32,000 bases of DNA from Candidatus Nanoarchaeia archaeon (lineage in GTDB: Archaea > Nanobdellota > Nanobdellia > Woesearchaeales > JANQNC01): NCBI GenBank assembly GCA_028279745.1, contig JANQNC010000001.1, forward strand, positions 900,001 through 932,000, in the 5' to 3' direction. The position numbers and the translations under genes were made by a program. The notes under the pieces were generated by a model. The model saw only the letters and a list, made by a program, of their open reading frames with translations, searched no databases and was not told where the DNA came from. Below, one piece after another: positions 45-18,140 of the stretch. Each line of letters starts with the position of its first letter. Position 1 is the first letter of the stretch.

Positions 45-89
45 ATATTTATAAGTGATTAGTAAACATTTTAACAATATATGGAGGGG
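45..89 (+). promoter_or_regulatory. Putative promoter and ribosome-binding region of panD
   Basis: An AT-rich TATA-like tttataag lies at 48-55. A Shine-Dalgarno-like GGAGGGG at 83-89 sits 5 nt before the ATG at 95. Confidence 0.35.
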
Positions 90-94: not shown

Positions 95-436
95 ATGAGG
101 GAATTTGCATCATCAAAAATACACAAAGCGAACGTAACGCAAGCAGACTTGGACTATGTAGGTTCAATTACTATAGATCAAGATCTGATGGACAAAGCAG
201 GTCTTATGGAAAACCAGAAAGTGCTGGTTGTAGATAACACAAACGGAGCAAGACTAGAAACTTATGTAATAGTCGGAGAAAGAGGGTCTGGTGTTATATG
301 CATGAATGGAGCAGCAGCACATCTGATAAAAAAAGGAGATGAAATAATCATAATAGGTTTTGACATTGCAGAAAAACCTGTTGAGATGAAAAACATCTTA
401 GTAGATAAAGACAACAATTTTGTTCGTTATTTATAA
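95..436 (+). CDS. panD: Aspartate 1-decarboxylase proenzyme (pyruvoyl-dependent)
   Basis: The 113-aa product is collinear with bacterial PanD. It has [15 protein letters not shown] with the Gly23-Ser24 self-cleavage site (Ser codon 164-166), plus [21 protein letters not shown]. Confidence 0.9.
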
Positions 437-452
437 TTTTTTTATTTAGGGG

Positions 453-1991
453 GTGGAGTTTAAGTTGGAGATAAAGTTAATTCAAGATATCTTGAAGTAC
501 AACGTTACGAGAAATCCTGACAAAACTTGCTGTGTTTTCCCCAGAGATAACGACTCAAGCTTAACTTATTCTGAACTTGATAAGAAATCAAATACTTTTT
601 CAGGCAACTTAATTGATTTTGGTTTGAAGAAGGGAGATAAAGTGCTTGTAATGACTACAAATCTTCCCGAGTCTTTGATCGTTTATTATGGTATACTCAA
701 AGTGGGAGGAGTTTTAGTTAATGTAAGTGCGAATTCTTCCGAGAAAGATGTTAAAAGGCTACTGAAAGAGACAGAGGCTAAGCTAGTAATTTATGAGAAT
801 GTTTTTTCTGATGTTATCAAAGAAGTAAAAAATAGTGAGATGTGTAATTTTATTGGAATAAGAACAACTGATGAAAAGTTGAATATCGATTATAAAACTG
901 TTAAAGAGAGCGATAAAGAACTTAATGTTGATATTTTAGATGATGATAATACTTTAATACTGTATACTTCTGGATCCACAGGGCTACCAAAAGGGTCTAT
1001 ACTGACACATAAAAACTTTGTCAGTACTGTAAAAAGCATACTTGAACGAGGTTTGTTTAAAGAAGGGGATAAAGCTTATTGTGTACAACCACTTTATTAT
1101 ATTGATCAAACCATATTTTTACATACTCCTTTTATGCTTGGGGGCACAGTATATGTTTCACCAAGATTCAGCAAAACAAACTTTTGGAATGATATAAAGA
1201 GTTATAATATAGATTATGTTTCTACTGTGCCTGTGATGCAGAGGATATTGTTGAAAGAATGTATTGAAGAAGCAAAAGGGCATTCTTTAAGGTTGATGTT
1301 CTCAACAGGACAACATTTACCTTTAGAGCTTATGGAAGAAGTTGAATCAAACTTTGACGTGGGTTTAGTGGATTGTTACGGGATGACTGAAGGGAGCGGA
1401 TTCTCAACGTTTAATCATTTTGATAAAGATAAGAGGAAAAAAGGGTCTATAGGGACAGTATTGAGTTGTTGTGAACATAAAGTTATAGATGAAGAAGGCA
1501 ATGCTCTTGGTGTAAACAAAATAGGTGAAATAATGGTCAAAGGAGACAACCAGATAAAAGGATATTTTAATGATGTTGGATCTTCCTCTGAACTTTTAGA
1601 TGATAAAGGGTGGATGCACACAGGGGACTTAGGATATTATGATGAAGAGGGGTTTTATTATCTGGTTGGAAGAATAAAAAATTTGATAATAAAAGGTGGA
1701 GAGAATATTTCTACTTTAGAGATTGAAGATATGATAAACAGTATTGGGGGAGTTGCAGATTGTTGTGCTGTGCCAATACCTGATGATATTTACGGAGAGG
1801 AGATAGGTTGTTTAGTTGTACTGAAAAAAGATGTTAAATGCAATGAAAAAGAGGTGATCGATTACTGCTTTGAGAAAAAAGGTAAACTAAAAACGCCAAA
1901 AAAAGTGTTTTTTGTGCCTGAGCTGCCAAAAACGGCTTCAGGAAAACACGACTTGGTGAAAATAAAAGAAATGGTATTGAGTTTGATGTAG
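453..1991 (+). CDS. AMP-forming acyl/aminoacyl ligase (adenylate-forming ANL superfamily)
   Basis: Core motifs are LYTSGSTGLPKG, GYYDEEGFYYLVGRIKNLIIKGGENI and C-terminal PKTASGKHD. The start is uncertain: GTG at 453 abuts a G-rich SD-like run, and TTG at 465 is an alternative. Confidence 0.85.
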   Translation: MEFKLEIKLIQDILKYNVTRNPDKTCCVFPRDNDSSLTYSELDKKSNTFSGNLIDFGLKKGDKVLVMTTNLPESLIVYYGILKVGGVLVNVSANSSEKDVKRLLKETEAKLVIYENVFSDVIKEVKNSEMCNFIGIRTTDEKLNIDYKTVKESDKELNVDILDDDNTLILYTSGSTGLPKGSILTHKNFVSTVKSILERGLFKEGDKAYCVQPLYYIDQTIFLHTPFMLGGTVYVSPRFSKTNFWNDIKSYNIDYVSTVPVMQRILLKECIEEAKGHSLRLMFSTGQHLPLELMEEVESNFDVGLVDCYGMTEGSGFSTFNHFDKDKRKKGSIGTVLSCCEHKVIDEEGNALGVNKIGEIMVKGDNQIKGYFNDVGSSSELLDDKGWMHTGDLGYYDEEGFYYLVGRIKNLIIKGGENISTLEIEDMINSIGGVADCCAVPIPDDIYGEEIGCLVVLKKDVKCNEKEVIDYCFEKKGKLKTPKKVFFVPELPKTASGKHDLVKIKEMVLSLM

Positions 1992-1992
1992 A

Positions 1993-3051
1993 ATGATAAA
2001 ACAAGAGTCCAAGCTTAGATTGTCAAATCTGTTCTCTTTTAGAAATAATAAAGATCTGTTTTTGGACAAAAATTGTTCTTTTTTTCATATGGCAAGGTAT
2101 GGATTGTATGAGATTGCCAAAAGACTAAATGATGTAGGAAGTATTAATGTATTAGTTCCTTCTTATCATTGTGATGCAATTGTAAAACCTTTTGAAAAAG
2201 CAGGAGTTAAAGTAAAATTCTATAAGATTGACAAGAATTGTAATACTGATTTTGTTGATTTGGCGAAGAAGATTGATATGGATACTAAAGCAGTTGTGAT
2301 GATACACTATTTTGGGTTTCCTAACGAGATAGAGAAGTATGTTTCAATCTGTAAAAAAAAGAATGTTCTGCTTATCGAAGATTGTGTGCAGTCTATGTTT
2401 TCTTCTTATAAAGGGAAAAGAGTGGGGTTGTTTGGAGATGTAAGTTTTGTAAGCTGGAGAAAGTTCCTTCCGTTGGAAGAAGGTGCGAGTTTTAGACATA
2501 ATGGGTTTTTAATGAATAACCAAAGTAGATTAGATATAAAGAATTGGTTGAAGGCAGTTAAAAATACTGTCGAAAATGTTTTTAGCAAAGATGTAAGCAT
2601 TAAGCCTTTAAGCTCTGGAAAAGTTGACATTGATAGGTCTGCATCAGAATTAGTTCCTGCGTTCTTTAATAAAAAACCAACAGGTTTAACCGAAAGAATA
2701 TTTAGAAAGTATGATATAAGATCTGTAGTTATTAAAAGAAGGAATAACTATGCTTATTTAATGGAGGCACTTAAAAATTCTAAAATAGTATTACCCTTTC
2801 AAAAATTGATTGAGGGAGTGTGTCCTTCTGCATTTCCATTAATTGTAAAAGAAGATAATGTTGATGTTAAGCTGAGAGCTAAAGGGATATCTGCGTGTCA
2901 ATGGAGATATTTAAGCCCGGACTTGTCTAGAAAAGAATTTAAAGATGCCTATTTTTTGATGGAACACTTAGTTTTTTTGCCAGTACATGAGGGATTGAAT
3001 ATGCATGAATTGAATCATATTATTGAAGAGGTCAAAAAGTTAGTAAGATGA
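1993..3051 (+). CDS. DegT/DnrJ/EryC1/StrS-like PLP-dependent sugar aminotransferase or dehydratase
   Basis: The layout is family-like: VLVPSYHCDAIVKPFEKAGVKVKFYKID, LIEDCVQS, and GDVSFVSWRKF with a candidate PLP lysine. It starts 2 nt after the ligase stop. Confidence 0.7.
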   Translation: MIKQESKLRLSNLFSFRNNKDLFLDKNCSFFHMARYGLYEIAKRLNDVGSINVLVPSYHCDAIVKPFEKAGVKVKFYKIDKNCNTDFVDLAKKIDMDTKAVVMIHYFGFPNEIEKYVSICKKKNVLLIEDCVQSMFSSYKGKRVGLFGDVSFVSWRKFLPLEEGASFRHNGFLMNNQSRLDIKNWLKAVKNTVENVFSKDVSIKPLSSGKVDIDRSASELVPAFFNKKPTGLTERIFRKYDIRSVVIKRRNNYAYLMEALKNSKIVLPFQKLIEGVCPSAFPLIVKEDNVDVKLRAKGISACQWRYLSPDLSRKEFKDAYFLMEHLVFLPVHEGLNMHELNHIIEEVKKLVR

Positions 3052-4217
3052 GTTTAACAATTGAAAGGATAAGTACTTTTGAAGAGTTTAAGAAGTTAGA
3101 ACCCATTTGGAACACTTTTTTAGAGAAAACACCTGCAGATACTGTTTTTTTGACATATGAATTCTTAAGTGTGTGGTGGGAAGCATTTGGAAAAGACAAA
3201 AAGATGCTTGTTCTGTTAGTCAAAGATTCTGGAAAATTACTGGGGATAGCGCCTCTGATGATTGAAGGGGGAGATGTAAAGTTTATGAGAGATGTTCATT
3301 CTTACTATTTTGATTTTATAATATCTGAAAAAAACCAAGAGGTTTTGTTTGCAATTTTTAGTTATTTAGAGAAGAACATAGAGTTTGATAAGCTTATTTT
3401 AGAGGACGTACCCTTAGATTCAACAAATTTAGGCATGATTAAGAGTAAGAAATTTAAAAAATCAGGTTTTATTTTTTTAAAGTTTAATGAGCGAGTATCT
3501 CCTGTAATTAAGATAGAAGAAGAATGGGAGAACTATTATGGTGGTATACCAAAAAGTAGAAGGAAAAGCATAAGAAATAATCTTAGTAAACTTTCTAGAA
3601 TTGGTAACGTTAGATATTGTGATATTGTCAATAAAGAGTTGTTGCCCAGACTTATCAAAGATTTTTTCTTAATCGAGAGAGGTTCGTGGAAGCATACAGT
3701 AGGAAGATCAGTAACCGGAGATAAACAACAAATGTTTTTTTATAAGACGCTTGCAGAAAGAATGCAAGATAAAGGGCAGATATGTCTAGATTTTTTATTC
3801 GTAGACGAAAAACCTGCCTCTTTTGTGTATGACCTTGTTTACAAAGATAAGAGGTACAATCTAAAAACCTCTTTTTTGGAGGATTATGATGGGGCAGGTC
3901 CCGGCACTTACCTTGCTAAAGAAGTTGTTCAAAATAGTTTTAAAAAGGGACTAGATTGTTTAGATTTTTTGGGTGTTATGGATTCTAGGAAAAAATTATT
4001 CTCCAACTCTGAGAGGGCTGCAGAATATATTTATTTGTATAAAAGCACTATTAAAAATAAAGTTTATGTTTTGTTCAACCAACTGGTTTGGAAAAGATTG
4101 GGGAGGTGGGAGATTATTCAAAAGATAAAAAATAAACTTCTTGGTAAATTTCCCACTGAAGAAAAGAATAGAGAAGAATTCAAAAAATTACAAAATGAAA
4201 GACTTAACCAAGATTAG
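3048..4217 (+). CDS. FemAB/CelD/BioF2-like GNAT-fold acyltransferase
   Basis: The 389-aa product has an N-terminus (EEFKKLEPIWNTFL...FLTYEFLSVWWEAFGK...LGIAPLMIE) typical of CelD/BioF2-like acetyltransferase-domain proteins. It is paralogous to 26006-27079. ATGA overlap with the upstream gene. Confidence 0.6.
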   Translation: MSLTIERISTFEEFKKLEPIWNTFLEKTPADTVFLTYEFLSVWWEAFGKDKKMLVLLVKDSGKLLGIAPLMIEGGDVKFMRDVHSYYFDFIISEKNQEVLFAIFSYLEKNIEFDKLILEDVPLDSTNLGMIKSKKFKKSGFIFLKFNERVSPVIKIEEEWENYYGGIPKSRRKSIRNNLSKLSRIGNVRYCDIVNKELLPRLIKDFFLIERGSWKHTVGRSVTGDKQQMFFYKTLAERMQDKGQICLDFLFVDEKPASFVYDLVYKDKRYNLKTSFLEDYDGAGPGTYLAKEVVQNSFKKGLDCLDFLGVMDSRKKLFSNSERAAEYIYLYKSTIKNKVYVLFNQLVWKRLGRWEIIQKIKNKLLGKFPTEEKNREEFKKLQNERLNQD

Positions 4218-5208
4218 AAAAGAGATTCTTGAGTTTTCAAGAAAGACGTTTCCTGGAGAGGAAAGTAGAGAATGGACCTACTTTCAAAATAATTATGTGA
4301 ATCATCCCGATAAAAAAAGTCCAAAGTACACTGCAATTTTTGAAGGAGGCAAGATGATAGGTTTTTTGGGATATATTCCTATGAGATTAAAAATTGGAAA
4401 AGTTTTTTATAAATCTGGCTGGCAGCTTGACCAGTTTGTTTCAGAAGAAAAAAGAGGTAAAGGGATAGGCAGGAAGATACTTAACGAGGCATATTCGCTT
4501 TTTGATATAAACCTGGCAATTAAAAACAGTGAAGATGCTATAAGAATATATACTAAACAAGGGTGGAAGTATCATAGTATACCTCTTTATCTTAAAATAA
4601 TAAGTTTTAGAAGTTATCTCCCTAGGTTCTTGGAAAAGGTGGGTCTTGTTTATGTTCTGGATAAGGTTTACCAGACCCTATTTTGTAATAAGGAGAGTGA
4701 ATTAGATTTTGAAAGATTTGGTGAATGTGGGGAGGAGCTCAGAGAAGTATGGAAAAAGAATAGTAAGCACTATTCTCTTGTTAATGAAAGGGATAGAGAT
4801 TATCTCAACTGGAAATTTAAGAACTATGAAAAGTATTATGTAATAAACAAAGGAACTATTGAAGGTTACATAATCCTGAAGACAGAAAGAAAAGGGAAAA
4901 AGAAAATGCTGAGTATAATAGACTTTTTTATGGATCCAAATAAGAAGGGGATCATCAATTCTGTTATAAATTTCTTAAATAAAAAAGCAATAGACGTTAA
5001 TGCGGACGTAATACGGTTTTATATTTCAGACAAAAGATTAGTAAAACTTTTCAGAAAGCAAAAATTTATTAAACGGGAAGATGATTTGAGACTGATGTAC
5101 TATTCAAAAAAACATCTTGAACTGAACAGAAAGTATGAGGGTGTGTTAGTTACACTTTATGATTCGGATGGTGAGCCTTTCTTTTACAAAGAAGGAAAGA
5201 GAGATTAA
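4195..5208 (+). CDS. GNAT family N-acetyltransferase with a C-terminal extension
   Basis: Acetyl-CoA motif A QFVSEEKRGKGIGRKILNEA. I prefer the ATG at 4195 over the TTG at 4141 in the ORF track. It overlaps the upstream gene by 23 nt. Confidence 0.65.
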   Translation: MKDLTKIRKEILEFSRKTFPGEESREWTYFQNNYVNHPDKKSPKYTAIFEGGKMIGFLGYIPMRLKIGKVFYKSGWQLDQFVSEEKRGKGIGRKILNEAYSLFDINLAIKNSEDAIRIYTKQGWKYHSIPLYLKIISFRSYLPRFLEKVGLVYVLDKVYQTLFCNKESELDFERFGECGEELREVWKKNSKHYSLVNERDRDYLNWKFKNYEKYYVINKGTIEGYIILKTERKGKKKMLSIIDFFMDPNKKGIINSVINFLNKKAIDVNADVIRFYISDKRLVKLFRKQKFIKREDDLRLMYYSKKHLELNRKYEGVLVTLYDSDGEPFFYKEGKRD

Positions 5209-5212: not shown

Positions 5213-6598
5213 ATGTCATTACCTAAAAAAATATTAATCTTTTTTCTTTTAACTATCTTTATTCTTCCTGCTACTGCGATGGGTTTTGTCTTGTTGTGGG
5301 GTGCTTCTTACCAGAACCAAACTAAACTTTTAGTTGACACCGTAGATTATTATAATGATGGTTCTAGGACAGAGGTAGTACTGGTCGATGAAGGAGTATA
5401 TGTATATGATGCAAACGGCGCCTTATTGTGCAGTAATCCTGAAAGCGGATTTGTTGAAGGTAGAAATGGTAAGTGGATTACTAGCGTGTCTGATGTTTAT
5501 TCGGGGTTTTATGATCATGTCTTTGTCAGCGGAGATAGTGGGGAGAGTGCACCCCGAACTTTAACAAGAGTGTTCAGCAAGGATTGTGAGTTGGTGGAAG
5601 ATTTTCAAAAAAGCTATGTCTACACACCTTATTTGAGAGATGTTGACAGTGATGGCTGCGATGAACTGATATATGGTGGAAAAGCTTTAGATTTGGACCG
5701 TACAAAAAAAAGTAACGAATGGGTACAGTTATGGGATACTGAAGTGCCAAAGTTTATGGATGAAGTTTATGACTGGGATTTTGAGAATGGATTTTGTTAT
5801 AATGAATATATAGAAAATATAGTTTGTGTTAATGGATCTGGAAATGTTAAGTTTAGAAAGAAACCCTTAAACGGTTCCCGTAACATTGCTGTTGGGGATT
5901 TTGATGGAAAAGGAATAAAGAATGATGTAGCAACTGTGGGTGTAAAACCATCAGAAAAAGTACTTCGTCTTTATATAGGGGATGAATACGGTAAACAGTT
6001 AGTTTTAGTAGAAGAAAAGGGAAAGTCTACAAGTTTGCCAAGAGAGCTTGTGGCTGGGCAGATTGATTATACTTCTAAAACAGATGAGCTTGTTTTTGGT
6101 GCCGGCGGGGTAATAAATGCCTATGATTCTGAAGGACGTCTATTATGGAACTACGCTCCTGAAATGGGGGGTTATGCAGATAACATTATCATAGCTGATG
6201 TTGAGAATGATGGTAAGAACGAAGTTGTTGTAGCACAAGGTAGTAAGATCTATGTGTTGGATAATGAGGGGGGGCATTTATTTAACATGACTGTAAATGG
6301 AGTTTCGTTTAACTGGCACGGCACACACCCAACAATGCAAGTTCAAGATATTACTGGGGATTGTTGTAAAGAAATATTGTTATCAACTAATTCAGGGGAT
6401 TTTTATGTTTATGGGTTGGAAGAATGCGGAGTTAATGAATGCGATGAAGGAGATTTATTAAGAAAAAACAACTGTTTTAATGAAAATCAATCCCCTTTCA
6501 GAAATTATGAGGTAAAAGAGGAAAGTTTGTGGGATGTTATTCTACATTTATTTAAAGATAGATTTTATTTGATAAAGAAACTAGTTGAAATCAACTAA
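5213..6598 (+). CDS. Secreted FG-GAP/VCBS-like beta-propeller repeat protein
   Basis: From the ATG at 5213 the N-terminus MSLPKKILIFFLLTIFILPATAMG looks like a signal peptide. Calcium-loop-like repeats follow: DVDSDGCDELIYGG, VGDFDGKGIKNDVATVG, IADVENDGKNEVVVAQG and VQDITGDCCKEILLS. Confidence 0.65.
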   Translation: MSLPKKILIFFLLTIFILPATAMGFVLLWGASYQNQTKLLVDTVDYYNDGSRTEVVLVDEGVYVYDANGALLCSNPESGFVEGRNGKWITSVSDVYSGFYDHVFVSGDSGESAPRTLTRVFSKDCELVEDFQKSYVYTPYLRDVDSDGCDELIYGGKALDLDRTKKSNEWVQLWDTEVPKFMDEVYDWDFENGFCYNEYIENIVCVNGSGNVKFRKKPLNGSRNIAVGDFDGKGIKNDVATVGVKPSEKVLRLYIGDEYGKQLVLVEEKGKSTSLPRELVAGQIDYTSKTDELVFGAGGVINAYDSEGRLLWNYAPEMGGYADNIIIADVENDGKNEVVVAQGSKIYVLDNEGGHLFNMTVNGVSFNWHGTHPTMQVQDITGDCCKEILLSTNSGDFYVYGLEECGVNECDEGDLLRKNNCFNENQSPFRNYEVKEESLWDVILHLFKDRFYLIKKLVEIN

Positions 6599-6623
6599 GT
6601 AGTAGGATAAGAAGGAATCAAAA

Positions 6624-8096
6624 ATGTTAAAAGATCTAACCCGAGTTGGAAAACACAGCATCATCTATGGTTTAGGGGGTGTTGTGCAGAAACTAGTTGG
6701 ATTTTTAATGGTGCCTGTATACACAAGGTATCTTAGCCCAACAGATTATGGGGTGGCTGCACTAATCATGTTTACTGTAACTTTGGCAGGTATGTTATGG
6801 AACAACGCGTTGAACAGAACAATTTCAAGATTTTATTTTGATTATAAACGACAAAAGGAAAGAAACGCTGTGATAAGCACAAGCTTAGTAATCCAAACTA
6901 TATTTTCAGTTATCGTTTCAGCTGGAGTAATAATGTTTAGTTCAAAAATATCTTATCTTTTGTTTGACACTAGCAGATATGCATTATTTATCAATCTTGC
7001 GTTCATAGCCTTCTTGTTACAGTCTATTATAGAGATACCAATGACACTTTTAAGGTTAGTTGAAAAATCTGTCTTTTATTCGGTTATTAGTGTTGTACGT
7101 CTATTTGTTGCATTATTCTTGAACATTTTACTCATAGTTTTTTTGGATATGGGCCTTTTGGGTATATTTGTTAGTGGGGTAGTTACATCAGGACTTGTAT
7201 TCTTCTTACTGGTTCCAAAAACAATTTTCGAAACAGGTATTAAGTTTTCTATGAAAAAAGCAAGACACATGATGAAGTTTGCACTTCCCCTTGTCCCAGG
7301 GGGGCTGTTAATATTTGTGCTAATGAGGGCAGATGTTTTTTTATTACAAAAGTTGTCGACAACTGCGCAAGTGGGATTGTATAACTTGGGGATACAGTTG
7401 GGGACAGTGCTGATATATCTTATAGAACAGCCTTTTTTCTTGATATGGTACCCTTTTGTGTACTCTAGCTTAAAAAAACCAAAAATAAATAAAGTATTTT
7501 CAAGAATGCAAACTTATTTCTTTTTTATACTTATATTTTTTAGCTTATGCCTGGCAGTTTTGATTAAGCCAGTATTAAGTTTTCTTGTGGGGCCTGACTT
7601 TTTTGAAGTGTATAAGGTAGTTCCATTAATAGTTCTAGCATTTTTCTTTAGACCTCTTTCAGACTTTTTTAAGACGGGTTTACAGATAAAAAAGAAGACA
7701 AAAATGATTCCTTTAATTCTTGGGGTGGGAGTAATAATCAATCTTGCGTTAAACTTTATTTTAATACCGGGTATGGGTTATATGGGGGCAGCTGTTGCAA
7801 AATTATCAGCTTTTGCAGTTATAGCGTTAGTCGCTTATTTTATCTCTATAAAAATTTATAAAATAACACCTGAAAAGAGAGTTATTTTTGCTTTAATAGT
7901 TGCGATTGTGTACTATTTTGTGAGTTTGTTGATATCTGTCGAATCGATAGTGTTACAAATTACATTGGATGTGCTGTTTTTAATGACATTTCCTTTAGTA
8001 CTTTATCTGCTAAGAGTATTTAGGAAAGATGAAATTAAGAAAACAAAGGAGATTTTGAAAAAAATAAAGAACGTAAGGTCTTCAAAGATCAAATAA
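6624..8096 (+). CDS. Wzx-like oligosaccharide flippase (MOP/polysaccharide biosynthesis protein family)
   Basis: The 490-aa product is very hydrophobic and multi-spanning, with about 12-14 predicted helices by eye. It sits among glycosyltransferases. Confidence 0.8.
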   Translation: MLKDLTRVGKHSIIYGLGGVVQKLVGFLMVPVYTRYLSPTDYGVAALIMFTVTLAGMLWNNALNRTISRFYFDYKRQKERNAVISTSLVIQTIFSVIVSAGVIMFSSKISYLLFDTSRYALFINLAFIAFLLQSIIEIPMTLLRLVEKSVFYSVISVVRLFVALFLNILLIVFLDMGLLGIFVSGVVTSGLVFFLLVPKTIFETGIKFSMKKARHMMKFALPLVPGGLLIFVLMRADVFLLQKLSTTAQVGLYNLGIQLGTVLIYLIEQPFFLIWYPFVYSSLKKPKINKVFSRMQTYFFFILIFFSLCLAVLIKPVLSFLVGPDFFEVYKVVPLIVLAFFFRPLSDFFKTGLQIKKKTKMIPLILGVGVIINLALNFILIPGMGYMGAAVAKLSAFAVIALVAYFISIKIYKITPEKRVIFALIVAIVYYFVSLLISVESIVLQITLDVLFLMTFPLVLYLLRVFRKDEIKKTKEILKKIKNVRSSKIK

Positions 8097-8220
8097 TCTA
8101 TAAAGAGTTAGCTTGTTTAAGATATGACACTAGTAAGGGATTATTTATAATAATTTTTCTTATTTAAACGAAGGTAAAAAGTTATAAAACACTGTTAAAA
8201 ATGGGTTATTAACTGTTTAT

Positions 8221-9360
8221 TTGATGACTAAAATGGGAAAGATAAAAATATTGAGGATTGTTGATGAGTTTTTTAGAGCAGGTCTCCAGCAAGGTGTAAG
8301 AAACATAATATGTAACACAGAAACTAAAAAGTTTGAGAATGTAATCGTAAGTTTAAAAGGAGTAAATGAAGATATGCTGATCAAAGGAGTGAAAACTTAC
8401 GTTCTTAACAAAAAACCTGGTTTAGGGTGGGAGTTGCCTTTAAGAATAGCAAGGATAATCAAAAAAGAAAGACCTCACATACTGCAGATGCATAATATGG
8501 ATTCTTTGCAGCAAGGAATGCTTGCAACGTTGTTGTCTGATGTTCCAATAAAGATCTATGTCGATCACAACTCTTTTGAAAACAAACGATCAAAAAAAGC
8601 AGTACTGTTGAGCAGAATTCTTTCAAAAAGACTTGACAAAGCAATAACTGTGTCTGATGAAGTCCGAGAAAAAGTTGTTAAGGAGTTAGGGGTTAAAAGA
8701 AAAAAGGTAAAAACTATATTGAATGGGACTGACATAAGTAAGTTTGATAAAAAAATCAGTTTAGCTGGGTTAAGAAGTGAATTAGGAATAAGCAATAAAG
8801 ACAAGATAGTAACAATTGTGGCAGGCCTTAGAAAAATAAAAGATCATCTAACTTTGATCAAGGCATTTTCAACTGTTGTAAAAAAGGAAAAGAATGCAAA
8901 GCTAATAATAGTCGGGGTGGGTGAGGAAAAACCAAGAATCCAACAAACTATAGAAGAAGATATTTTGGAGAATAATGTGTTATTATTGGGATTAAGAGGA
9001 GATGTACCTGAAATTTTAGGAGTTACAGATGTTTCGGTTATATGTTCTTTATCTGAGGGGATTTCGCAAACAATAATGGAATCAATGGCAGCATCAAAAC
9101 CAGTTGTCGCAACAAATGTAGGGGGCAATCCTGTTTTGGTGGAAGAAGAGGTTAATGGACTACTTGTCCCTGTCAAGTCGTCTGATAAGTTAGCAGAGGC
9201 AATAGCGAGGTTGTTAGAAAATAAAAATCTAAGAGCGAAGATGGGAAAAGAAGGAAGAAAAAAGATTGAAGAATATTTTAATGTACAAAGAGTTTGCAAG
9301 GATTATGAGACATTGTATGTTGAGTTACTTAATAAAAAAGGAGTAAAATGTGCGGAATAG
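8221..9360 (+). CDS. Glycosyltransferase family 4 (GT-B)
   Basis: C-terminal E-x7-E region: SLSEGISQTIMESMAASKPVVATNVGGNPVLVEEEVNGLLVP. The start is ambiguous among TTG 8221, ATG 8224 and ATG 8233. Confidence 0.85.
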   Translation: MMTKMGKIKILRIVDEFFRAGLQQGVRNIICNTETKKFENVIVSLKGVNEDMLIKGVKTYVLNKKPGLGWELPLRIARIIKKERPHILQMHNMDSLQQGMLATLLSDVPIKIYVDHNSFENKRSKKAVLLSRILSKRLDKAITVSDEVREKVVKELGVKRKKVKTILNGTDISKFDKKISLAGLRSELGISNKDKIVTIVAGLRKIKDHLTLIKAFSTVVKKEKNAKLIIVGVGEEKPRIQQTIEEDILENNVLLLGLRGDVPEILGVTDVSVICSLSEGISQTIMESMAASKPVVATNVGGNPVLVEEEVNGLLVPVKSSDKLAEAIARLLENKNLRAKMGKEGRKKIEEYFNVQRVCKDYETLYVELLNKKGVKCAE

Positions 9361-11210
9361 TCGGAGTTTGGGATTTTAAGAATAAAGTTGACAAAAAAAG
9401 ACTTAACCAGATGAGAGACTCTTTAGAACATAGGGGGCCAGACGATAAAGGAACATATGTGGATGGGAGTATAGGGCTTGCGCAAAGAAGGTTAAGTATT
9501 ATTGATCTTTCCAAGGCAGGCAGACAACCGATGAGCAATGAGGATGGAAATATATGGATAACTTATAATGGAGAAATCTATAATTTCAAAGAGATAAAAG
9601 AAGATCTTGAGAAAAAAGGACACAAGTTTGAATCAGATACTGATACAGAAGTGATCATACATGCATACGAAGAATATGGTGAAAAATGTGTCAGTATGTT
9701 TAATGGCATGTTTGCATTTGCCATATGGGACTCAAACAAAAAAGAAATTTTCTTGGCAAGAGATAGAATTGGTCAGAAACCTTTAGTTTACTATAAAGAT
9801 CAAGATAAGTTTGTTTTTGCTTCAGAACTAAAAGCGATACTTCTTTATCCTGCGGTCGATAAGACAATAGCTGATGAAGCCATAACTCACTATCTTAGTT
9901 TTGGATATGTGCCAACGCCAAAGTGTATATTTGAGAAGATGTCAAAATTACCTCCAGGGCATTATGGGGTTGTTGATAAAAAAGGGAATGTTAAGATTGA
10001 ACAGTATTGGGATGTACATTTTTATAAGACTATAAAAAAATCAGAAAAAAGTCATTGTAAAGATATAGTCAAAGATTTGTATGAAGCTACAGAAAAAAGA
10101 ATGATATCTGATGTTCCGCTTGGAGCATTCTTATCTGGGGGGATAGACAGTAGTGCAGTTGTAGCAATGATGTCAAAAATATCTGACCTGCCTGTAAAAA
10201 CGTTTTCAATAGGTTTTGAAGAACAAGACTTTGACGAAACAGTATATGCAAGACAAGTTGCAGACTTATTTGGAACAGACCATCGAGAAGAGATAGTGAA
10301 GATGGATGCGATAAACATAATGGATGATCTAGTGTGGCATTATAACGAGCCGTATGCGGATTCATCAGCAATACCTACATTTTATCTGTCAAAAATGACA
10401 AGAAAACACGTTACTGTTGCGTTAAGTGGTGATGCGGGGGATGAAAGCTTCTTGGGTTATCCAAGATATGTCCCAGATAAGTACGAGATAATGTCAAAAG
10501 TGACGCCTGGTTTTTTGAAACCTTCAGTTTCTAGTTTTGGTAAAATGTTTTTCTCACAAGGTCATAAAATACCTTTATTCCAACAGATAGGGAGAAAATT
10601 TGACCTTCTTACGATGAAAGAAGAAGAACAATATTTTGAATGGCTATCAAATTTTAACACATACTACAAAAACAAAACAATGAACCAAGTAAAGGAGAGT
10701 TCTAAACAAATTCTTTTACAAAAGGCAGACAAGTACAAAGCACCCATGCTAAAAAAACAGTATTTTGATTTTAAGCACTATCTGCCTGATGATATCCTTG
10801 TAAAAGTAGATATAGCATCGATGGCACACAGCTTAGAAGTGAGAAGTCCTTTTTTGGATCATAATCTAATAGCGAGCGCAAGCAGAATACCTTGGAAAGT
10901 GAAAATGAAGAACTTGGAGAAAAAGTATCTTTTAAAGAGAGCGTTATCTGGAATATTGCCAAAAAATATTCTTTACAGGAAAAAAGCAGGATTTGGTGTT
11001 CCCTTAGTTCATTGGTTTAGGAAAGACTTGAAAGATGTGAGTTATGATGTTTTGCTTAGCAAAGATGCAAGTAGCAGAGGGTATTTTAATAAGAGCTTTA
11101 TCAAAAAATTACTGGGCAGCCATAATAGAGGCGCTGACCACAGCCACAAGATATGGAGTCTATTGTTCTTAGAGAAATGGTTTAGAAAATTTATGGATGG
11201 GGAAAAGTAA
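9348..11210 (+). CDS. asnB: Asparagine synthase (glutamine-hydrolysing)-type amidotransferase
   Basis: N-terminal MCGIVG (Cys2 nucleophile of Ntn amidotransferases). The synthetase domain has a PP-loop LSGGIDSS. 620 aa. It overlaps the upstream GT4 by 13 nt. Confidence 0.9.
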   Translation: MCGIVGVWDFKNKVDKKRLNQMRDSLEHRGPDDKGTYVDGSIGLAQRRLSIIDLSKAGRQPMSNEDGNIWITYNGEIYNFKEIKEDLEKKGHKFESDTDTEVIIHAYEEYGEKCVSMFNGMFAFAIWDSNKKEIFLARDRIGQKPLVYYKDQDKFVFASELKAILLYPAVDKTIADEAITHYLSFGYVPTPKCIFEKMSKLPPGHYGVVDKKGNVKIEQYWDVHFYKTIKKSEKSHCKDIVKDLYEATEKRMISDVPLGAFLSGGIDSSAVVAMMSKISDLPVKTFSIGFEEQDFDETVYARQVADLFGTDHREEIVKMDAINIMDDLVWHYNEPYADSSAIPTFYLSKMTRKHVTVALSGDAGDESFLGYPRYVPDKYEIMSKVTPGFLKPSVSSFGKMFFSQGHKIPLFQQIGRKFDLLTMKEEEQYFEWLSNFNTYYKNKTMNQVKESSKQILLQKADKYKAPMLKKQYFDFKHYLPDDILVKVDIASMAHSLEVRSPFLDHNLIASASRIPWKVKMKNLEKKYLLKRALSGILPKNILYRKKAGFGVPLVHWFRKDLKDVSYDVLLSKDASSRGYFNKSFIKKLLGSHNRGADHSHKIWSLLFLEKWFRKFMDGEK

Positions 11211-12339
11211 AGTGAAGATATTATTCTTATGCCACAGGGTTCCTACACCTTACAGAGGGAGCAGCAGGACAGCTTTGAATGTGATAAAACATCTATCAAA
11301 GAAGCACGAAGTTCATGTTGTTTATCTAAGTTTTAGCAGGAAAGATTTGTTGTGGGCTAAAGAGCTAGAAAAGTTTTGCAGTAAAGCATCAACAACAATA
11401 ATAAAAAGACCTGTGTTGGGTGCAGTTGGAAGCATTTTTTCATTAAGGCCAAGCTCTTTTGGATATTTTTACTCTAAGAAGCTGAAAGAGATTGTAGATA
11501 GTATAGATTGCGATCTTATATTTATAAGATCATCACAGATGGCAATGTATGTTTCTGAAAGAAAAGAAAGAAAGATAGGTTTTATAGGTGATGCGGATTC
11601 AGAAAAATGGAAAACATATTCAAAAGAGAAACTTTTCCCATTAGGGCCGTTTTACTATCTCGAATATCTCAAAGTAAAGAGATGGGAGAAAAAGATCGTT
11701 AAACAGTGTGAAAAGATAATAGTTATCTCGGAGCCAGAGAAAGAATTATTGAGTAAAGATGCAATAGTGATGCCCAACGGAGTAAAGATACCAAAACTGA
11801 AAAAAACAGTCAAAGCGAAAAGTTCAGTTATCTTCTTGGGAGTTATGGACTACAGACCAAATGTTGAAGGAACTATATATTTTCATGATGAGATACTTCC
11901 TTTGATAAAGAAGCAAGTTCCTGATGTAAAATTTGTAGTTGCAGGGATGAATCCTGCGAAAAAACTGAAAAAACTGAAAAATGCTACAGTTACAGGGTTT
12001 GTAGAAGATATGACTTCTTTAGTTGCAAGCCAGTCAGTTTTTGTGTCTCCGTTAAAGACTGCAAGAGGGGTTCAGAACAAGATACTTGATGCGATGGCAG
12101 CAGGTGTTCCAGTAGTGAGCACAAGTCTAGCAAATCAAGGGATATTGGCAGAGGATGGAAGAGAGATATTGATCGCAGACACGCCTGTAAGATTTGCTGA
12201 GAAAGTTATGAGGTTATTGAATGATAAAAAATTAAGAGAAAAGATTTCATTAAATGCTAAGAGATTCATAAAAAAGAAGTTTGATCTAGATACAAACTTA
12301 AAAATGTTGGACAATATAGTTTATGGGGTGAAGAGTTAA
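11197..12339 (+). CDS. Glycosyltransferase family 4-like (GT-B)
   Basis: ARGVQNKILDAMAAGVPVVSTSLANQGI is the donor-binding region of GT-B retaining transferases. It overlaps asnB by 14 nt. Confidence 0.8.
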   Translation: MGKSKVKILFLCHRVPTPYRGSSRTALNVIKHLSKKHEVHVVYLSFSRKDLLWAKELEKFCSKASTTIIKRPVLGAVGSIFSLRPSSFGYFYSKKLKEIVDSIDCDLIFIRSSQMAMYVSERKERKIGFIGDADSEKWKTYSKEKLFPLGPFYYLEYLKVKRWEKKIVKQCEKIIVISEPEKELLSKDAIVMPNGVKIPKLKKTVKAKSSVIFLGVMDYRPNVEGTIYFHDEILPLIKKQVPDVKFVVAGMNPAKKLKKLKNATVTGFVEDMTSLVASQSVFVSPLKTARGVQNKILDAMAAGVPVVSTSLANQGILAEDGREILIADTPVRFAEKVMRLLNDKKLREKISLNAKRFIKKKFDLDTNLKMLDNIVYGVKS

Positions 12340-13517
12340 TGAGGGTGTTATTTTTGTGTAAGGATGTGATCTTCCCGATAGATTCAGGGGGGAGGATAAG
12401 AACTTATAATATGCTTAAACAGCTAAATAAGAAGTTTGATTTAGATATAATCTCTGTTGTGTGCCCAGGAGAAGAGAAATACATCCCTGAAATGAGAAAG
12501 TTATGTAAGAATTTTGTTTATGTGAGGTCAAGGAAATCTTCTAAACAAGGTTTAAAATTTTATTTGCATGTATTTAGAAATCTATTCTCAAGATACCCTT
12601 ATACCATGGCGCATGACTATAAGAGAGACTTGAAACGAAATATAAACAGAATCTATAAGAATTATAATCTGTTCATCTGTGACTTTCTGTTCCCAGCTCT
12701 TAACTGCTTAGATGTAAAGATAAAAAAAGTACTGTTTCAGCATAATGTTGAATTTATGGTTTTGAAAAGGCATTTTCAGAACACAAAAGGCATAAAAAGA
12801 CTTATATGGTGGTTACAGTACATAAAAGCAAAAAGAATGGAGAAAAAGATTACAAGGCTATTTAACTATGTAATCTGTGTATCGGAAAATGATGTCAATA
12901 TTCATAGACGTGTATTTGGTGTGAAAAATACAGATTATGTAGACCTTGGGGTGGATGTAAAAGAATATGAAAGGAAGGGTTTTGAAAGAGAAAAAAAATC
13001 AATAGTTTTCACAGCAGGTCTTGACTGGAGACCAAACCCTGATGGAGTCAAATATTTTAACGATAAGATATTTCCCAGACTTGAAGGATACAAGTTTTAT
13101 TGTGTCGGAAAAAATCCAGATAAGGAGATTAGAAAACTGAATAGAAAAGATTTTGTGGTTACTGGGCGAGTGCCAGATGTTAAACCTTACTTGTTTAGGG
13201 GAGAGGTTTATGCAGTGCCACTGAGAATTGGCGGCGGAACAAGAATAAAAATATTCCAAGCGATGGCTGCAAAGATCCCTGTTGTTTCGACAACAATAGG
13301 TGCAGAAGGATTGCCAGTAACTGACGGAGAGAACATATTGATAAGAGATTCACCCAAAGAGTTCGCTGAAGCGATAGATAAACTGAGTACTGATAAAAAA
13401 CTGTATAACCGAATTAAAAATAATGCGTATAACCTAGTTAAGAATAACTATTCTTGGGAAAAAATATCAAAGAAATTTATTGAGATATGTGAAACTGTTG
13501 TGGGGATAAGAAAATGA
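12339..13517 (+). CDS. Glycosyltransferase family 4-like (GT-B), paralogue of the previous gene
   Basis: GGGTRIKIFQAMAAKIPVVSTTIGAEGLPV, and an N-terminus similar to 11197-12339. TAATG overlap of 1 nt. Confidence 0.8.
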   Translation: MRVLFLCKDVIFPIDSGGRIRTYNMLKQLNKKFDLDIISVVCPGEEKYIPEMRKLCKNFVYVRSRKSSKQGLKFYLHVFRNLFSRYPYTMAHDYKRDLKRNINRIYKNYNLFICDFLFPALNCLDVKIKKVLFQHNVEFMVLKRHFQNTKGIKRLIWWLQYIKAKRMEKKITRLFNYVICVSENDVNIHRRVFGVKNTDYVDLGVDVKEYERKGFEREKKSIVFTAGLDWRPNPDGVKYFNDKIFPRLEGYKFYCVGKNPDKEIRKLNRKDFVVTGRVPDVKPYLFRGEVYAVPLRIGGGTRIKIFQAMAAKIPVVSTTIGAEGLPVTDGENILIRDSPKEFAEAIDKLSTDKKLYNRIKNNAYNLVKNNYSWEKISKKFIEICETVVGIRK

Positions 13518-14308
13518 AATTTGTAAAAGGTTTAATCTTAAAGTTTTTGCCTGAAAAAGTTTTGATTTGGTTGAAGAAAAAGTATTACGCAAGAACTCTT
13601 TCAAGACTTTCATTAAGTGGAAAGTTGGCTTATTTTAAAGTTGTTAGAGAGCTGGTTGTACCTGGAGATAGGGTTATAGACATTGGTGCTAATATAGGTT
13701 ATTGCACGAAAGTAATGTCTAAATTTGTTTCAGAATCTGGAAAAGTGTACAGCATTGAGCCTGTAAAGCAAACCTTCGAGTTACTAAAAAGTAATATTGG
13801 GAGTTTTAAGTTAAGAAATGTTAAACCATTGAGGTTTGCAGTTTCTAACAAAGAAGAGATGGTAAAAATGGAAATACCTATCTATGAATCTTTGGGGAAA
13901 AACTATTATGAAGCGAGATTGGTTGGTGATAAGGAAGAGTTTAAAGACATTTTCAGTGTTCAGTCAAAAAAGATCGACTCTTTATTTTTGGATGAGAATA
14001 TATCTTTCATCAAATGTGATGTTGAAGGTCATGAACTTGAAGTTTTTCAAGGGGCAAAGCAGTTTTTGAAAAAAGTAAAACCTGGTTGGTTGGTTGAAGT
14101 GATAAGCGATCCAGAAGAAAAAGGTTCTCCAGCAAACCGTCTTTTTAAATTGGTCAAAAAAGAAGGGTATGGGGCATATTGGTTTAACAGCGAGGATAAA
14201 TCACTAAACAGGTATAAAAAAGGGACGAAAGCAATCGACTTTTTCTTTTTGACCAAAGAACATATAAATAAGTTGATGAGTTCAGATGAAATAAAAGTAA
14301 AAGGTTAA
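13514..14308 (+). CDS. FkbM-family SAM-dependent methyltransferase
   Basis: SAM motif VIDIGANIGYCT, then IKCDVEGHELEV, which is typical of FkbM-type methyltransferases. ATGA overlap upstream. Confidence 0.75.
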   Translation: MKFVKGLILKFLPEKVLIWLKKKYYARTLSRLSLSGKLAYFKVVRELVVPGDRVIDIGANIGYCTKVMSKFVSESGKVYSIEPVKQTFELLKSNIGSFKLRNVKPLRFAVSNKEEMVKMEIPIYESLGKNYYEARLVGDKEEFKDIFSVQSKKIDSLFLDENISFIKCDVEGHELEVFQGAKQFLKKVKPGWLVEVISDPEEKGSPANRLFKLVKKEGYGAYWFNSEDKSLNRYKKGTKAIDFFFLTKEHINKLMSSDEIKVKG

Positions 14309-14309
14309 G

Positions 14310-15524
14310 ATGAACATAAGTGTTTTTGGATTGGGTTATGTGGGGATAGTAACATCTGCAATACTTTCAAAGAAGCATAAAGTTATAGGTGTAGATGTAA
14401 ATCCGACAAAAGTCTCAATAATGAACCAAGGCAGATCACCTATAATTGAGGAAGGGGTGAGCGAGCTAGTAAAAAAAGGGATAAAGTCTAAAAGGCTTAA
14501 AGCAACTTCTGATCCAAAATATGCTGTAATGAACACAGATGTTTCTGTGATTTGTGTCGGGACACCTTCTGAAGAGTCGGGAGGACACGATCTCTCTTAT
14601 CTTAATAATGTTATGGAAGAGATATCAGAGCTACTTAAGGAAAAGAAAAAGTATCATCTTATTGTAATAAGATCTACAGTAACTCCTGGGACTTCTCTTG
14701 AGATGAAAGAAAAGTATTTTCAGGGGATGAATGTTGGGTTATGTTTTAACCCAGAGTTTTTGAGAGAAGGCGTCGCGGTTAAAGATTATATCAATCCTCC
14801 TTTCATAATTGTTGCATGCACAGACAAGAAAGCAGTTAAGCTTATGAAAGAATTTTATAAAGGGATTAAATCAGAGTTTATTGTTGCACCATTTCAGGAA
14901 GCAGAGACAGTAAAGATGTTGTGTAATGTGTTCCATGCATATAAGATTGTGTTTGCGAATGAAGTGGGCAGGTTTTCGGAAGCATATGGTGTGAGTGGAA
15001 AAAGATTAATGAGCTTGTTGTGCAGAGATAAAAAGCTAAACATCTCAAGTAAGTATCTTATACCTGGTTTTGCTTATGGGGGGAGTTGCCTACCAAAAGA
15101 TCTAAGAAATTTACAGTATCTTGCAAGAAAGAAAGATCTAGATTTACCTGTAATAAACAGCCTTGATATTTCAAATGAGAAACACATACACAACGCAATA
15201 AGAAAAATAGAGTCATTTGATGTGCGGAGTGTGGGTTTTGTAGGATTAAGCTTTAAACCAGGTACAGATGATTTGAGAGAAAGTCCGCAAGTTAGGTTGG
15301 TTGAATACTTTATCGGAAAAGGGTATGATGTTAAAATATTCGACAAAGATGTTTCACTTGCAAAACTGATGGGTGCAAACAAAGCATACATCGAGAAAGA
15401 AATACCTCACATAAGCTCGCTTCTTGTGGATAGATTGGATGAGTTAGATGAGTGTAAAACTATAGTTCTTAATAGGAATGTTAAAAAAGATTTTAGCAAT
15501 AGGAATGTTGTTGATTTAAGATAA
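14310..15524 (+). CDS. Nucleotide-sugar 6-dehydrogenase (UDP-glucose/GDP-mannose dehydrogenase family)
   Basis: N-terminal Rossmann FGLGYVGIVTSA, a catalytic-cysteine motif GFAYGGSCLPKD, and LSFKPGTDDLRESP. Confidence 0.9.
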   Translation: MNISVFGLGYVGIVTSAILSKKHKVIGVDVNPTKVSIMNQGRSPIIEEGVSELVKKGIKSKRLKATSDPKYAVMNTDVSVICVGTPSEESGGHDLSYLNNVMEEISELLKEKKKYHLIVIRSTVTPGTSLEMKEKYFQGMNVGLCFNPEFLREGVAVKDYINPPFIIVACTDKKAVKLMKEFYKGIKSEFIVAPFQEAETVKMLCNVFHAYKIVFANEVGRFSEAYGVSGKRLMSLLCRDKKLNISSKYLIPGFAYGGSCLPKDLRNLQYLARKKDLDLPVINSLDISNEKHIHNAIRKIESFDVRSVGFVGLSFKPGTDDLRESPQVRLVEYFIGKGYDVKIFDKDVSLAKLMGANKAYIEKEIPHISSLLVDRLDELDECKTIVLNRNVKKDFSNRNVVDLR

Positions 15525-15541
15525 TGTTTTCCTTTTAAATG

Positions 15542-15559
15542 AGGGGTCACTCCCTTTTT
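15542..15559 (+). terminator. Hairpin plus T5 tract after the dehydrogenase gene
   Basis: AGGGG-tcac-TCCCT stem-loop at 15542-15555 runs directly into TTTTT (15555-15559). Further T-tracts follow before the next gene. Confidence 0.4.
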
Positions 15560-15607
15560 AAGGCAGGGGAAAAACTTAATAAAGACTTATTTTTCCTATT
15601 TTAGAAT

Positions 15608-17810: not shown

Positions 17811-17822
17811 CTCCACTAAATC

Positions 17823-17830
17823 TTTATAAA
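17823..17830 (+). promoter_or_regulatory. Archaeal TATA box for the tRNA gene
   Basis: TTTATAAA is centred about 27-28 nt upstream of G17855, the first base of the acceptor stem. That is the usual archaeal TATA-to-start spacing. Confidence 0.55.
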
Positions 17831-17874
17831 TAAAATACTTGTTCTTTAATGTATGAACCTGTAGCGCAGCCTGG

Positions 17875-17964: not shown

Positions 17965-17983
17965 ATAGCGCAATAGCCTCCTA

Positions 17984-17999: not shown

Positions 18000-18021
18000 A
18001 GCTATAGGTCGAGGGTTCGAA

Positions 18022-18117: not shown

Positions 18118-18140
18118 TCCCTCCAGGTTCGTATTTTAAG

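Follow-up and report, generated by a model that had tools for sequence, protein, structure and literature searches.

In a Candidatus Nanoarchaeia archaeon (Woesearchaeales; GCA_028279745.1), a gene for a pyruvoyl-type aspartate 1-decarboxylase (panD) is followed directly by a gene for an adenylate-forming ligase of the ANL superfamily, and the two head a gene cluster for glycan assembly. Both lie in a stretch of 32,000 nucleotides (nt) of contig JANQNC010000001.1 (positions 900,001 to 932,000, forward strand), which is hereafter called the window; unless a locus is named, coordinates are those of the window. We propose, with a probability of roughly 55%, that panD and the ligase gene form a functional pair heading a glycan-tailoring operon, in which beta-alanine would be activated and then put on an amino sugar. 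The proposal is built on enzyme family assignments and genomic linkage, which were observed; the substrate, the acceptor, the linkage chemistry, and co-transcription are deduced from them.

The linkage was examined by comparing the neighborhoods of the closest ligase homologues. Among 5.8 billion proteins, only two close homologues of the ligase were found (66% and 63% identity), the next being at most 37% identical, and both are encoded directly downstream of panD on the same strand; counting the window, the linkage is 3/3. On one contig (L092), panD is followed after a 17-nt gap by the ligase gene and an orthologue (52% identity) of the DegT-like gene of the window, after which the contig ends. 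On the other (L010), a 26-nt gap separates panD from the ligase gene, which is followed by an orthologue (47% identity) of the window's GNAT-family acyltransferase of 337 amino acids (aa) and by a glycosyltransferase family 4 (GT4) gene, while GT2 and unknown genes occupy the other strand upstream. The genes flanking the pair differ among the three contigs, and the identities of 47% (GNAT) and 52% (DegT-like) mark a substantial divergence. Since the panD–ligase junction was kept while the flanks differ, the pairing goes beyond chance, in support of an earlier reading of this DNA made from its letters alone (the sequence-only reading). The GNAT gene accompanies the ligase gene, and the context is glycan-related, in both contigs long enough to show it, namely the window and L010; panD, the ligase gene, and the GNAT gene are the only genes common to these two, GT4 being a class also found in both contexts. 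No further ligase members were found in a metagenome scan with an alignment of the three ligases, in which relatives were at most 31% identical and none stood beside PanD.

A six-frame listing of open reading frames (ORFs) and profile searches confirmed the five-gene module on the + strand at or near the positions that the sequence-only reading had given, and bore out its account of the gene content and tight packing as well as of a flippase, glycosyltransferases, and a sugar dehydrogenase downstream. The features are as follows.

48..54, + strand: TTTATAA, read from the sequence as a TATA-like box 41 nt upstream of the panD start; candidate promoter of the operon
95..436, + strand: PanD, 113 aa (PF02261, E=1.4e-41; TIGR00223, 134.5 bits, cutoff 106)
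437..464, + strand: panD–ligase spacer, with a Shine-Dalgarno-like element GGGGGTGG (449-456) ahead of a TTG start
465..1991, + strand: ANL ligase, 508 aa (PF00501, E=3.9e-76; PF13193, E=5e-18)
1993..3051, + strand: divergent pyridoxal phosphate (PLP) enzyme of the DegT/DnrJ/EryC1/StrS family, 352 aa (PF01041, E=5.8e-20, 72 bits, residues 50-155 only)
3048..4217, + strand: Acetyltransf_6 (FemAB/CelD-like, GNAT-fold) acyl- or aminoacyl-transferase, 389 aa (PF13480, E=1.1e-17)
4195..5208, + strand: two-domain GNAT N-acyltransferase, 337 aa (PF00583, E=5.9e-9; also PF13508 and PF13527)
5213..19244, + strand: co-directional glycan assembly genes, from profile searches
6624-8096, + strand: Wzx-type flippase
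14310-15524, + strand: NDP-sugar dehydrogenase (TIGR03026, 344.5 bits, cutoff 189.8)

At its first two junctions, the module has gaps of 28 nt and 1 nt, and at the last two the genes overlap by 4 nt and 23 nt. The ligase start was taken from the public gene call (508 aa, TTG 465); the ORF lister placed it at GTG 453, with which the first gap becomes 16 nt. Likewise, the GNAT start at 4195 (337 aa), which gives the 23-nt overlap, is that of the public call, and the ORF lister gave 4141. The module heads a one-strand glycan cluster of ca. 19 kb, in which the genes from 5213 to 19244 encode, in order, a secreted FG-GAP protein, the Wzx flippase, a GT4 enzyme (stp2-like), an AsnB-like amidotransferase, two GT4 enzymes (stp1-like), an FkbM methyltransferase, the NDP-sugar dehydrogenase, a DUF4330 protein, two small unknown proteins, and a GDE-like glycosidase. 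The host is a DPANN-type archaeon, marked as archaeal by gatD, gatE, and cdc48 genes in the window, and the GC content is uniform along the window (31–39%; genome, 33%). Profile searches of the ORFs in the whole 32-kb window detected no gene for pantothenate or coenzyme A (CoA) synthesis besides panD, in agreement with the sequence-only reading.

The three panD–ligase spacers share a layout, in which a G-rich Shine-Dalgarno-like element is followed by a non-ATG start (GGGTGG then GTG in L010; GGGGGT then TTG in L092). TTTATAA also precedes panD in L010, 24 nt upstream; such AT-rich words are frequent in a genome of 33% GC, which tempers the promoter candidate. Together, the spacers and the shared TTTATAA would fit a single transcript headed by panD.

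PanD of the window scores over the curated equivalog cutoff of TIGR00223. In an alignment, its Lys8, His10, Gly23-Ser24, Arg53, Thr56, Tyr57, and Asn71 match the catalytic set of the Escherichia coli enzyme (Lys9, His11, Arg54, Thr57, Tyr58, and Asn72), and the Gly-Ser self-cleavage site and the MNGAAA motif are present. The result agrees with that obtained with a bacterial PanD encoded next to panC (L013). By these residues, the protein is a pyruvoyl-dependent aspartate 1-decarboxylase with all catalytic residues intact, and it is predicted to be active.

Judged by its motifs and homologues, the ligase is an ANL adenylate-forming enzyme of a rare PanD-linked subfamily. The core motifs are intact (A3, YTSGSTGLPKG; A5, YGMTE; A7, TGD; A8, GRxKxxIKxGGxNI; and the A10 lysine in PKTASGK). 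Its nearest relatives of solved structure are the oxalyl-CoA synthetases 6qjz and 5ie0 (E about 1e-65), followed by 4-coumarate-CoA ligase, FadD13, MenE, and malonyl-CoA synthetase (MatB). The ligase stayed far below the cutoffs of all 25 fatty-acyl ligase families listed in NCBIfam, with a best score of 346.9 bits for NF004837 against a cutoff of 476, a point in favor of the sequence-only reading.

The pocket motifs PLYYIDQ, STGQHLP, and YGMTEG-GFSTFN are invariant in the three PanD-linked ligases, and the nearest non-linked relatives (36% identical) carry YHING, SASSALP, and TETAAP at these sites. The oxalate pocket of AtAAE3 comprises Val215-His216, Cys288-Ser289, Ala313-Met314, His319, and Lys500; the residues specific for oxalate are Ser289 and His319, and the pantetheine tunnel has His214 as its gate (PMC8905533, a study of the grass pea enzyme). 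When these positions were mapped onto the window ligase, Tyr was found for His214, Ile-Asp for Val215-His216, Thr-Gly for Cys288-Ser289, Gly-Met for Ala313-Met314, and Gly for His319, and all mapped residues are identical in 3/3 PanD-linked enzymes. An oxalyl-CoA synthetase was rejected since both oxalate-specific positions are Gly (Gly282 and Gly312 in the ligase alignment numbering) and His216 is replaced by Asp. The pocket is predicted to be larger than that of AtAAE3 and acidic, and it would suit a C3 omega-amino acid with its ammonium end.

The A4 motif PLYYIDQ has Tyr at the FD position of the FDxS motif found in DltA and nonribosomal peptide synthetases (NRPSs), with an Asp two residues on. 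An amino acid adenylation enzyme of the DltA/NRPS type was rejected on account of the replacement of the A4 Asp by Tyr and the lack of a carrier gene. The window offers no gap that could hold a carrier-protein gene, and CoA is therefore favored as the acceptor of the activated acyl group. The aromatic Tyr at the tunnel gate, the CoA-ligase relatives, and the GNAT-fold enzymes encoded downstream likewise favor a CoA thioester, and the ligase is probably CoA-forming.

The GNAT gene is the conserved partner of the pair. Its product belongs to a family of two-domain proteins of ca. 350–380 aa with 1,076 representatives at E<1e-3. The N-terminal domain of the family profile matched AAC(2′) aminoglycoside N-acetyltransferases (E=1e-7) as well as GNA1, N-myristoyltransferases, and the Eis-like structures 3n7z and 2ozg, which are acyl-CoA-dependent N-acyltransferases, several of them acting on amino sugars. 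The C-terminal half had no match among solved structures even with the family profile, and the single GNAT sequence gave only noise against them. AlphaFold models built from single sequences were unusable (predicted local distance difference test [pLDDT] scores of 36 for GNAT and 42 for the DegT-like protein). The Acetyltransf_6 protein had no sequence match among solved structures.

The DegT-like protein reached at most 72 bits against NCBIfam equivalogs with cutoffs above 375; its PF01041 match of 72 bits exceeds the gathering score, and DegT-family structures in the PDB matched only the PLP-binding core (E=1e-12). Full-length homologues annotated as DegT family, encoded on an Aliiroseovarius plasmid and on haloarchaeal plasmids, are 24–27% identical. 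IEDCVQS provides an EDC-x-Q-S motif (EDxAQ in the family), and the Lys of S-W-R-K-F-L-P is invariant in 4/4 subfamily members; the assignment of this Lys carries the caveat that HMMER pairwise alignments to solved structures put a 3-residue gap at its loop. We take the protein as an active but divergent PLP enzyme and as a candidate sugar aminotransferase. It shares with L125:7986-9128 and L126:8001-9170 a divergent subfamily (window 1993-3051) with a shortened loop x-K-[FYL]-[LF]-P that generic models align poorly. In Haloterrigena, the vicinity of the DegT-like gene holds a GNAT gene, a gene of the alkaline phosphatase family, glmS, and glmU. Because the DegT-like and Acetyltransf_6 genes are both missing from L010, they are variable accessories of the panD–ligase pair.

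In the proposed pathway, PanD, identified by its sequence, would process itself to the pyruvoyl form and convert L-aspartate to beta-alanine. The ANL ligase would adenylate the carboxylate of beta-alanine and transfer it to CoA, as its nearest solved relatives do with their acids, to give beta-alanyl-CoA. The beta-alanyl group would then be moved onto the amine of an amino sugar by the two-domain GNAT, alone or together with the FemAB/CelD-like acyltransferase; this sugar may be a product of the DegT-like PLP enzyme, or a deacetylase may expose it. Finally, the GT4 enzymes would build the decorated unit, and the Wzx flippase would export it.

A second line of evidence came from bacteria. A metagenome-assembled genome of Nitrospira japonica (L075) encodes a 566-aa protein in which a PaaK/F390-synthetase-like adenylating enzyme carries a PanD-like domain at its C terminus (TIGR00223, 102.6 bits); the genes after it encode an Acetyltransf_6 protein, a GT4 enzyme, a carbohydrate esterase family 4 (CE4) deacetylase, and a stand-alone PanD. 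The architecture CapK_C plus Asp_decarbox was found in 120/120 of the matches listed, representing at least 117 clusters, from Nitrospirota, Krumholzibacteriota, and Latescibacterota, and the source names these proteins only "aspartate 1-decarboxylase" or "phenylacetate-CoA ligase". Another fusion locus (L094/L095) contains Wza, Wzc-like, Wzx, and glycosyltransferase genes and a CE4 deacetylase gene; in L096–L098, Wza, Wzz, and Wzy genes precede a triad of CE4 deacetylase, fusion, and stand-alone PanD; and in L123/L124, the order is methyltransferase, CE4 deacetylase, fusion, and PanD with no obvious polysaccharide locus around. The fusion lay in polysaccharide loci in 4/5 of the loci whose flanks were examined. 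The pairing of PanD with an adenylate-forming enzyme thus recurs with a non-orthologous ligase, usually in polysaccharide loci. A stand-alone PanD accompanies the fusion in five loci and is adjacent to the fusion gene in three. The coordinates are given as follows.

L075: fusion, 4560-6260; stand-alone PanD, 9980-10336
L096: fusion, 10001-11698; stand-alone PanD, 11698-12042
L123: fusion, 10001-11722; stand-alone PanD, 11783-12133
L085: fusion, 8183-9904; stand-alone PanD, 9965-10360
L090: fusion, 7928-9649; stand-alone PanD, 9995-10354
CE4 deacetylases of ca. 400 aa with the fusion: L096:8772-10001, L123:8781-9983, L075:8713-9927, and L094:15322-16536

In the fused PanD-like domain, the Gly-Ser cleavage site is gone, with Asp in place of Gly in 115/117, and Tyr58 is usually Phe; Lys9 and Arg54 are kept in the 117 fusions, and His11 is also kept in the five examined closely. 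The accompanying stand-alone PanD has kept Gly-Ser, Arg, Thr, Tyr, and Asn in 5/5 loci but has other residues in place of Lys9 and His11 (SAIF or SMIL). The losses on the two sides complement each other and suggest a heteromeric bacterial decarboxylase whose active site is split between both proteins and which is tethered to the ligase.

The CE4 deacetylase gene lies directly upstream of the fusion gene, with their ends touching or overlapping, in Nitrospirae and Latescibacteria. Its recurrence hints at a de-N-acetylated amino sugar as the acceptor. It also bears on a pathway of reverse polarity, in which beta-alanine would serve as the amine nucleophile and the ligase would adenylate a carboxylate, such as that of a uronic acid made by the dehydrogenase, to form an amide. 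An NDP-sugar dehydrogenase is indeed encoded in the cluster, the bacterial fusion has a CapK-like enzyme, whose family takes its name from a capsule locus (Pfam CapK_C), and ANL enzymes that form amides directly are known, such as GH3 enzymes and aminocoumarin ligases; the type 1 capsule of Staphylococcus aureus probably carries amide-linked taurine. However, this pathway would leave the conserved GNAT partner with no obvious role, the cluster already encodes an AsnB-like amidotransferase, the usual carboxylate-modifying type, and the Asp in the ligase pocket would repel a sugar carboxylate. Since the CE4 deacetylase of the fusion loci exposes an amine of the sugar and not a carboxylate, N-acylation by activated beta-alanine fits better than amidation of a uronic acid, and we regard the reverse polarity as improbable.

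Several observations weigh against the proposed beta-alanylation. PanD homologues 70–81% identical to that of the window are common in Woesearchaeota, Nanoarchaeota, and Patescibacteria and occur in many bacterial phyla; the sequence-only reading had held a pyruvoyl PanD to be odd for an archaeon, and this did not hold for DPANN. Such panD genes mostly have no ligase gene nearby, and the ligase of the window was found within 8 kb of panD in 0/80 species-representative loci among the matches listed. The closest PanDs (77–81% identity) are encoded beside YchF/YdjM and SWEET genes or between toxin–antitoxin pairs, and other copies in DPANN and the candidate phyla radiation (CPR) adjoin FEN1, OapC, CCA-adding enzyme, class-V aminotransferase, or MurD genes. 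In a Saccharibacteria locus (L064), panD begins 3 nt after a MurD-like ligase gene. In the DPANN and Patescibacteria loci examined (L001–L007, L011, L012, L014, L015, L037, L064, and L071), no pantothenate or CoA gene was found beside panD. In bacteria, PanC is the commonest same-strand neighbor of this PanD type (7/82 neighbors, L013 included), and the window PanD is 73% identical to the panC-adjacent PanD of L013; as far as its sequence goes, a housekeeping role would be fully compatible. PanD of the window thus looks like an ordinary lineage-wide enzyme and may well serve other needs for beta-alanine. Because this PanD type adjoins panC in bacteria, it could be an ordinary source of beta-alanine that also serves the operon rather than a dedicated one, which leaves the dedicated supply put forward in the sequence-only reading weaker than claimed.

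In a PanD tree, the three ligase-linked PanDs fall in a 7-leaf clade of 61 sequences, but they are not one another's nearest relatives, and one member of this clade has an unrelated ORF downstream. We rejected the PanD phylogeny as a discriminator since the protein is too short and too conserved. The three linked contigs could also reflect one arrangement inherited in a single lineage. L010 lacks the DegT-like and Acetyltransf_6 genes, neither of which is a constant partner. At the junction itself, a TATA-like TTTATAA (430-436) forms the last codons of panD and is followed by a run of seven T (T7; 437-443) and then GGGGGTGG, and these elements could act as a promoter inside the operon or partly terminate transcription before the ligase gene. 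In L010 and L092, neither the word nor the run is conserved at this place. We rejected a terminator at the junction since the T7 run is unconserved in these two contigs and the + strand of the window has 67 runs of six or more T. The pocket residues were assigned by sequence alignment with solved relatives, and to our knowledge no member of this family has been described as a beta-alanine:CoA ligase. The open-access literature yielded neither a beta-alanyl glycan nor a glycan cluster with PanD, which is weak evidence of absence; likewise, that literature gave nothing relevant on the function of CapK, on PanD in DPANN, or on PanD with adenylating enzymes in exopolysaccharide loci.

Much of this would fit a simpler explanation, in which PanD serves general metabolism (CoA synthesis or salvage), the ligase activates another small acid for transfer to an amino sugar by the GNAT-fold enzymes, and their adjacency is inherited synteny. 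It draws on the wide occurrence of PanD in DPANN and CPR genomes without this ligase, on the canonical sequence of PanD and its identity with the panC-linked enzyme, on the lack of an exclusive clade of linked PanDs, and on the best family matches of the ligase, which are fatty-acid or small-acid CoA ligases. On the other hand, 3/3 members of the ligase subfamily follow panD at 17–28 nt despite rearranged flanks, the ligase falls under every curated fatty-acyl cutoff and lacks the oxalate-binding residues, and the independent fusion of a PanD-like domain to another adenylating enzyme makes the pairing a recurrent one. Weighing these, we consider inherited synteny with a housekeeping PanD unlikely. 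For the functional link between PanD and the ligase that the sequence-only reading had drawn, the bacterial fusion to a different adenylating enzyme gave independent support, but most PanDs proved to be unlinked.

The product might instead lie outside glycans, either as a small conjugate of beta-alanine, such as an N-acyl-beta-alanine, or because the ligase replaces pantothenate synthetase in joining pantoate and beta-alanine. That panD, the ligase gene, and the GNAT gene are the sole genes shared by the window and L010 would be in line with this, as would the fact that PanC was seen near no DPANN panD examined; the chemistry of PanC is also adenylate-forming. However, the pair is embedded in a one-strand operon, with 1-nt or overlapping junctions, together with a sugar-type aminotransferase, a flippase, and glycosyltransferases, and in L010 a GT4 gene directly follows. 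Moreover, PanD occurs in these lineages far more often than the ligase, which therefore cannot be the general route to pantothenate. A non-glycan product is, in our estimate, very improbable. As for the decoration of a surface sugar with beta-alanine that the sequence-only reading had suggested, the PanD–ligase linkage and the glycan context speak for it, but that beta-alanine acts as the acyl rather than the amine partner, and that it ends up on a glycan, is what we infer from them.

We compared the window with known systems. In the Dlt system (DltA–DltC–DltB–DltD), an ANL enzyme also activates a small amino acid, which ends as a charge-modifying decoration of a surface glycopolymer. However, Dlt works with a carrier protein and an MBOAT membrane protein and attaches the amino acid as an ester, whereas the window has no carrier gene, its ligase has Tyr for the Asp of FDxS, and its module includes GNAT-fold transferases and a dedicated decarboxylase. 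Vibrio cholerae O1 makes perosamine tetronate with the aminotransferase RfbE and with RfbK-O, which include an ANL-type ligase and an acyl carrier protein and handle a hydroxy acid. As proposed for the window, a DegT-family aminotransferase makes the amino sugar there and an ANL ligase activates an unusual acyl group for its amine; in the window, by contrast, the acid would be a beta-amino acid made by PanD, and transfer would probably proceed via CoA and GNAT. Pathway-dedicated PanD homologues occur in natural-product clusters, for example, CrpG of cryptophycin. In these, too, a cluster-encoded pyruvoyl PanD-type decarboxylase feeds a beta-amino acid to an adenylating enzyme, but they are bacterial NRPS lines, whereas the window has an archaeal glycan cluster with a stand-alone enzyme of the CoA-ligase type. 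In insects, the aspartate decarboxylase black and Ebony make N-beta-alanyl-dopamine (e.g., PMC4468592, PMC8907826). There, too, beta-alanine comes from an aspartate decarboxylase and is activated and joined to an amine by an adenylate-forming enzyme. In insects, however, the decarboxylase depends on PLP, Ebony resembles an NRPS and has a carrier domain, and the acceptor is a catecholamine and not a sugar.

The best family matches of the GT4 and AsnB-like proteins (window 8221-13517) were of the XrtA/PEP-CTERM type, with 235 bits for TIGR03088 (cutoff 409), 665 bits for TIGR03108 (cutoff 817), and 260 and 177 bits for TIGR03087 (cutoff 317), the best match for two of the GT4 enzymes. XrtA/PEP-CTERM exopolysaccharide loci include genes for a ligase, a PLP decarboxylase, and a FemAB-like protein, and they resemble the window in combining a ligase, a decarboxylase, FemAB-like proteins, and a deacetylase, but the decarboxylase of the window is a pyruvoyl PanD and not a PLP enzyme, and its host is an archaeon. 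No exosortase gene was matched among the window ORFs scanned. Membership of the window cluster in this group was rejected since the scores are under the cutoffs and an exosortase is lacking. The matches suggest a bacterial-type polysaccharide toolkit in a DPANN genome. What sets the window apart from all these systems is the combination of a pyruvoyl PanD, a stand-alone CoA-ligase-type enzyme, and GNATs in an archaeal glycan cluster; the sequence-only reading, too, was aware of no described archaeal pathway of this composition.

Some other features of the window touch on glycans. A possible second tailoring set (25410..27832, mixed strands) lies 20 kb from panD between gatE and gatD. Its genes encode an unannotated protein of 202 aa in which a GNAT-like RRRGLF motif occurs (+), another Acetyltransf_6 protein (+; PF13480, E=5.9e-24), and, divergently oriented, a CE4 polysaccharide deacetylase (−; PF01522, E=6.7e-26). 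This Acetyltransf_6 protein and the one encoded after the fusion in Nitrospira L075 share 34% identity, and a link between this set and the panD module is possible. At 17241-17810, a 189-aa protein with no Pfam match has an N-terminal membrane helix and 4–5 Cys-rich repeats, C..L..G..G...C......G...K.WSEC. At 20105-21202 (− strand), a UDP-galactopyranose mutase is encoded (333 bits); since it exceeds the equivalog cutoff of 304, galactofuranose in the glycans of this archaeon is implied.

Amino acid decorations alter the charge, the antigenicity, and the phage or host recognition of surfaces, and D-alanylation of teichoic acids is the classic case; for a beta-alanine version with its own decarboxylase, no description was found in the open-access literature. 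A broader claim, which we advance only tentatively and hold to be doubtful, is that beta-alanylation of surface glycans is a widespread undescribed modification that arose at least twice with unrelated adenylating enzymes, namely a FadD/AAE3-like enzyme in DPANN and a CapK-like fusion in Nitrospirota, Krumholzibacteriota, and Latescibacterota, in the latter with a decarboxylase split between the fused domain (Lys9 and His11) and the stand-alone protein (pyruvoyl site, Arg54, Thr57, and Tyr58). If so, the split bacterial decarboxylase would tether the production of beta-alanine to its activation. The analysis also points out a large mis-named family of fusions, whose split active site would be unusual enzymology. 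The organisms concerned, DPANN archaea and candidate bacterial phyla, live attached to other cells; their surface is the interface of this lifestyle and is chemically almost uncharacterized. A role at the surface is a candidate answer to why reduced genomes with no pantothenate genes near panD retain a well-conserved PanD, and, by extension, PanD of reduced DPANN and CPR genomes might serve mainly the cell surface and not CoA.

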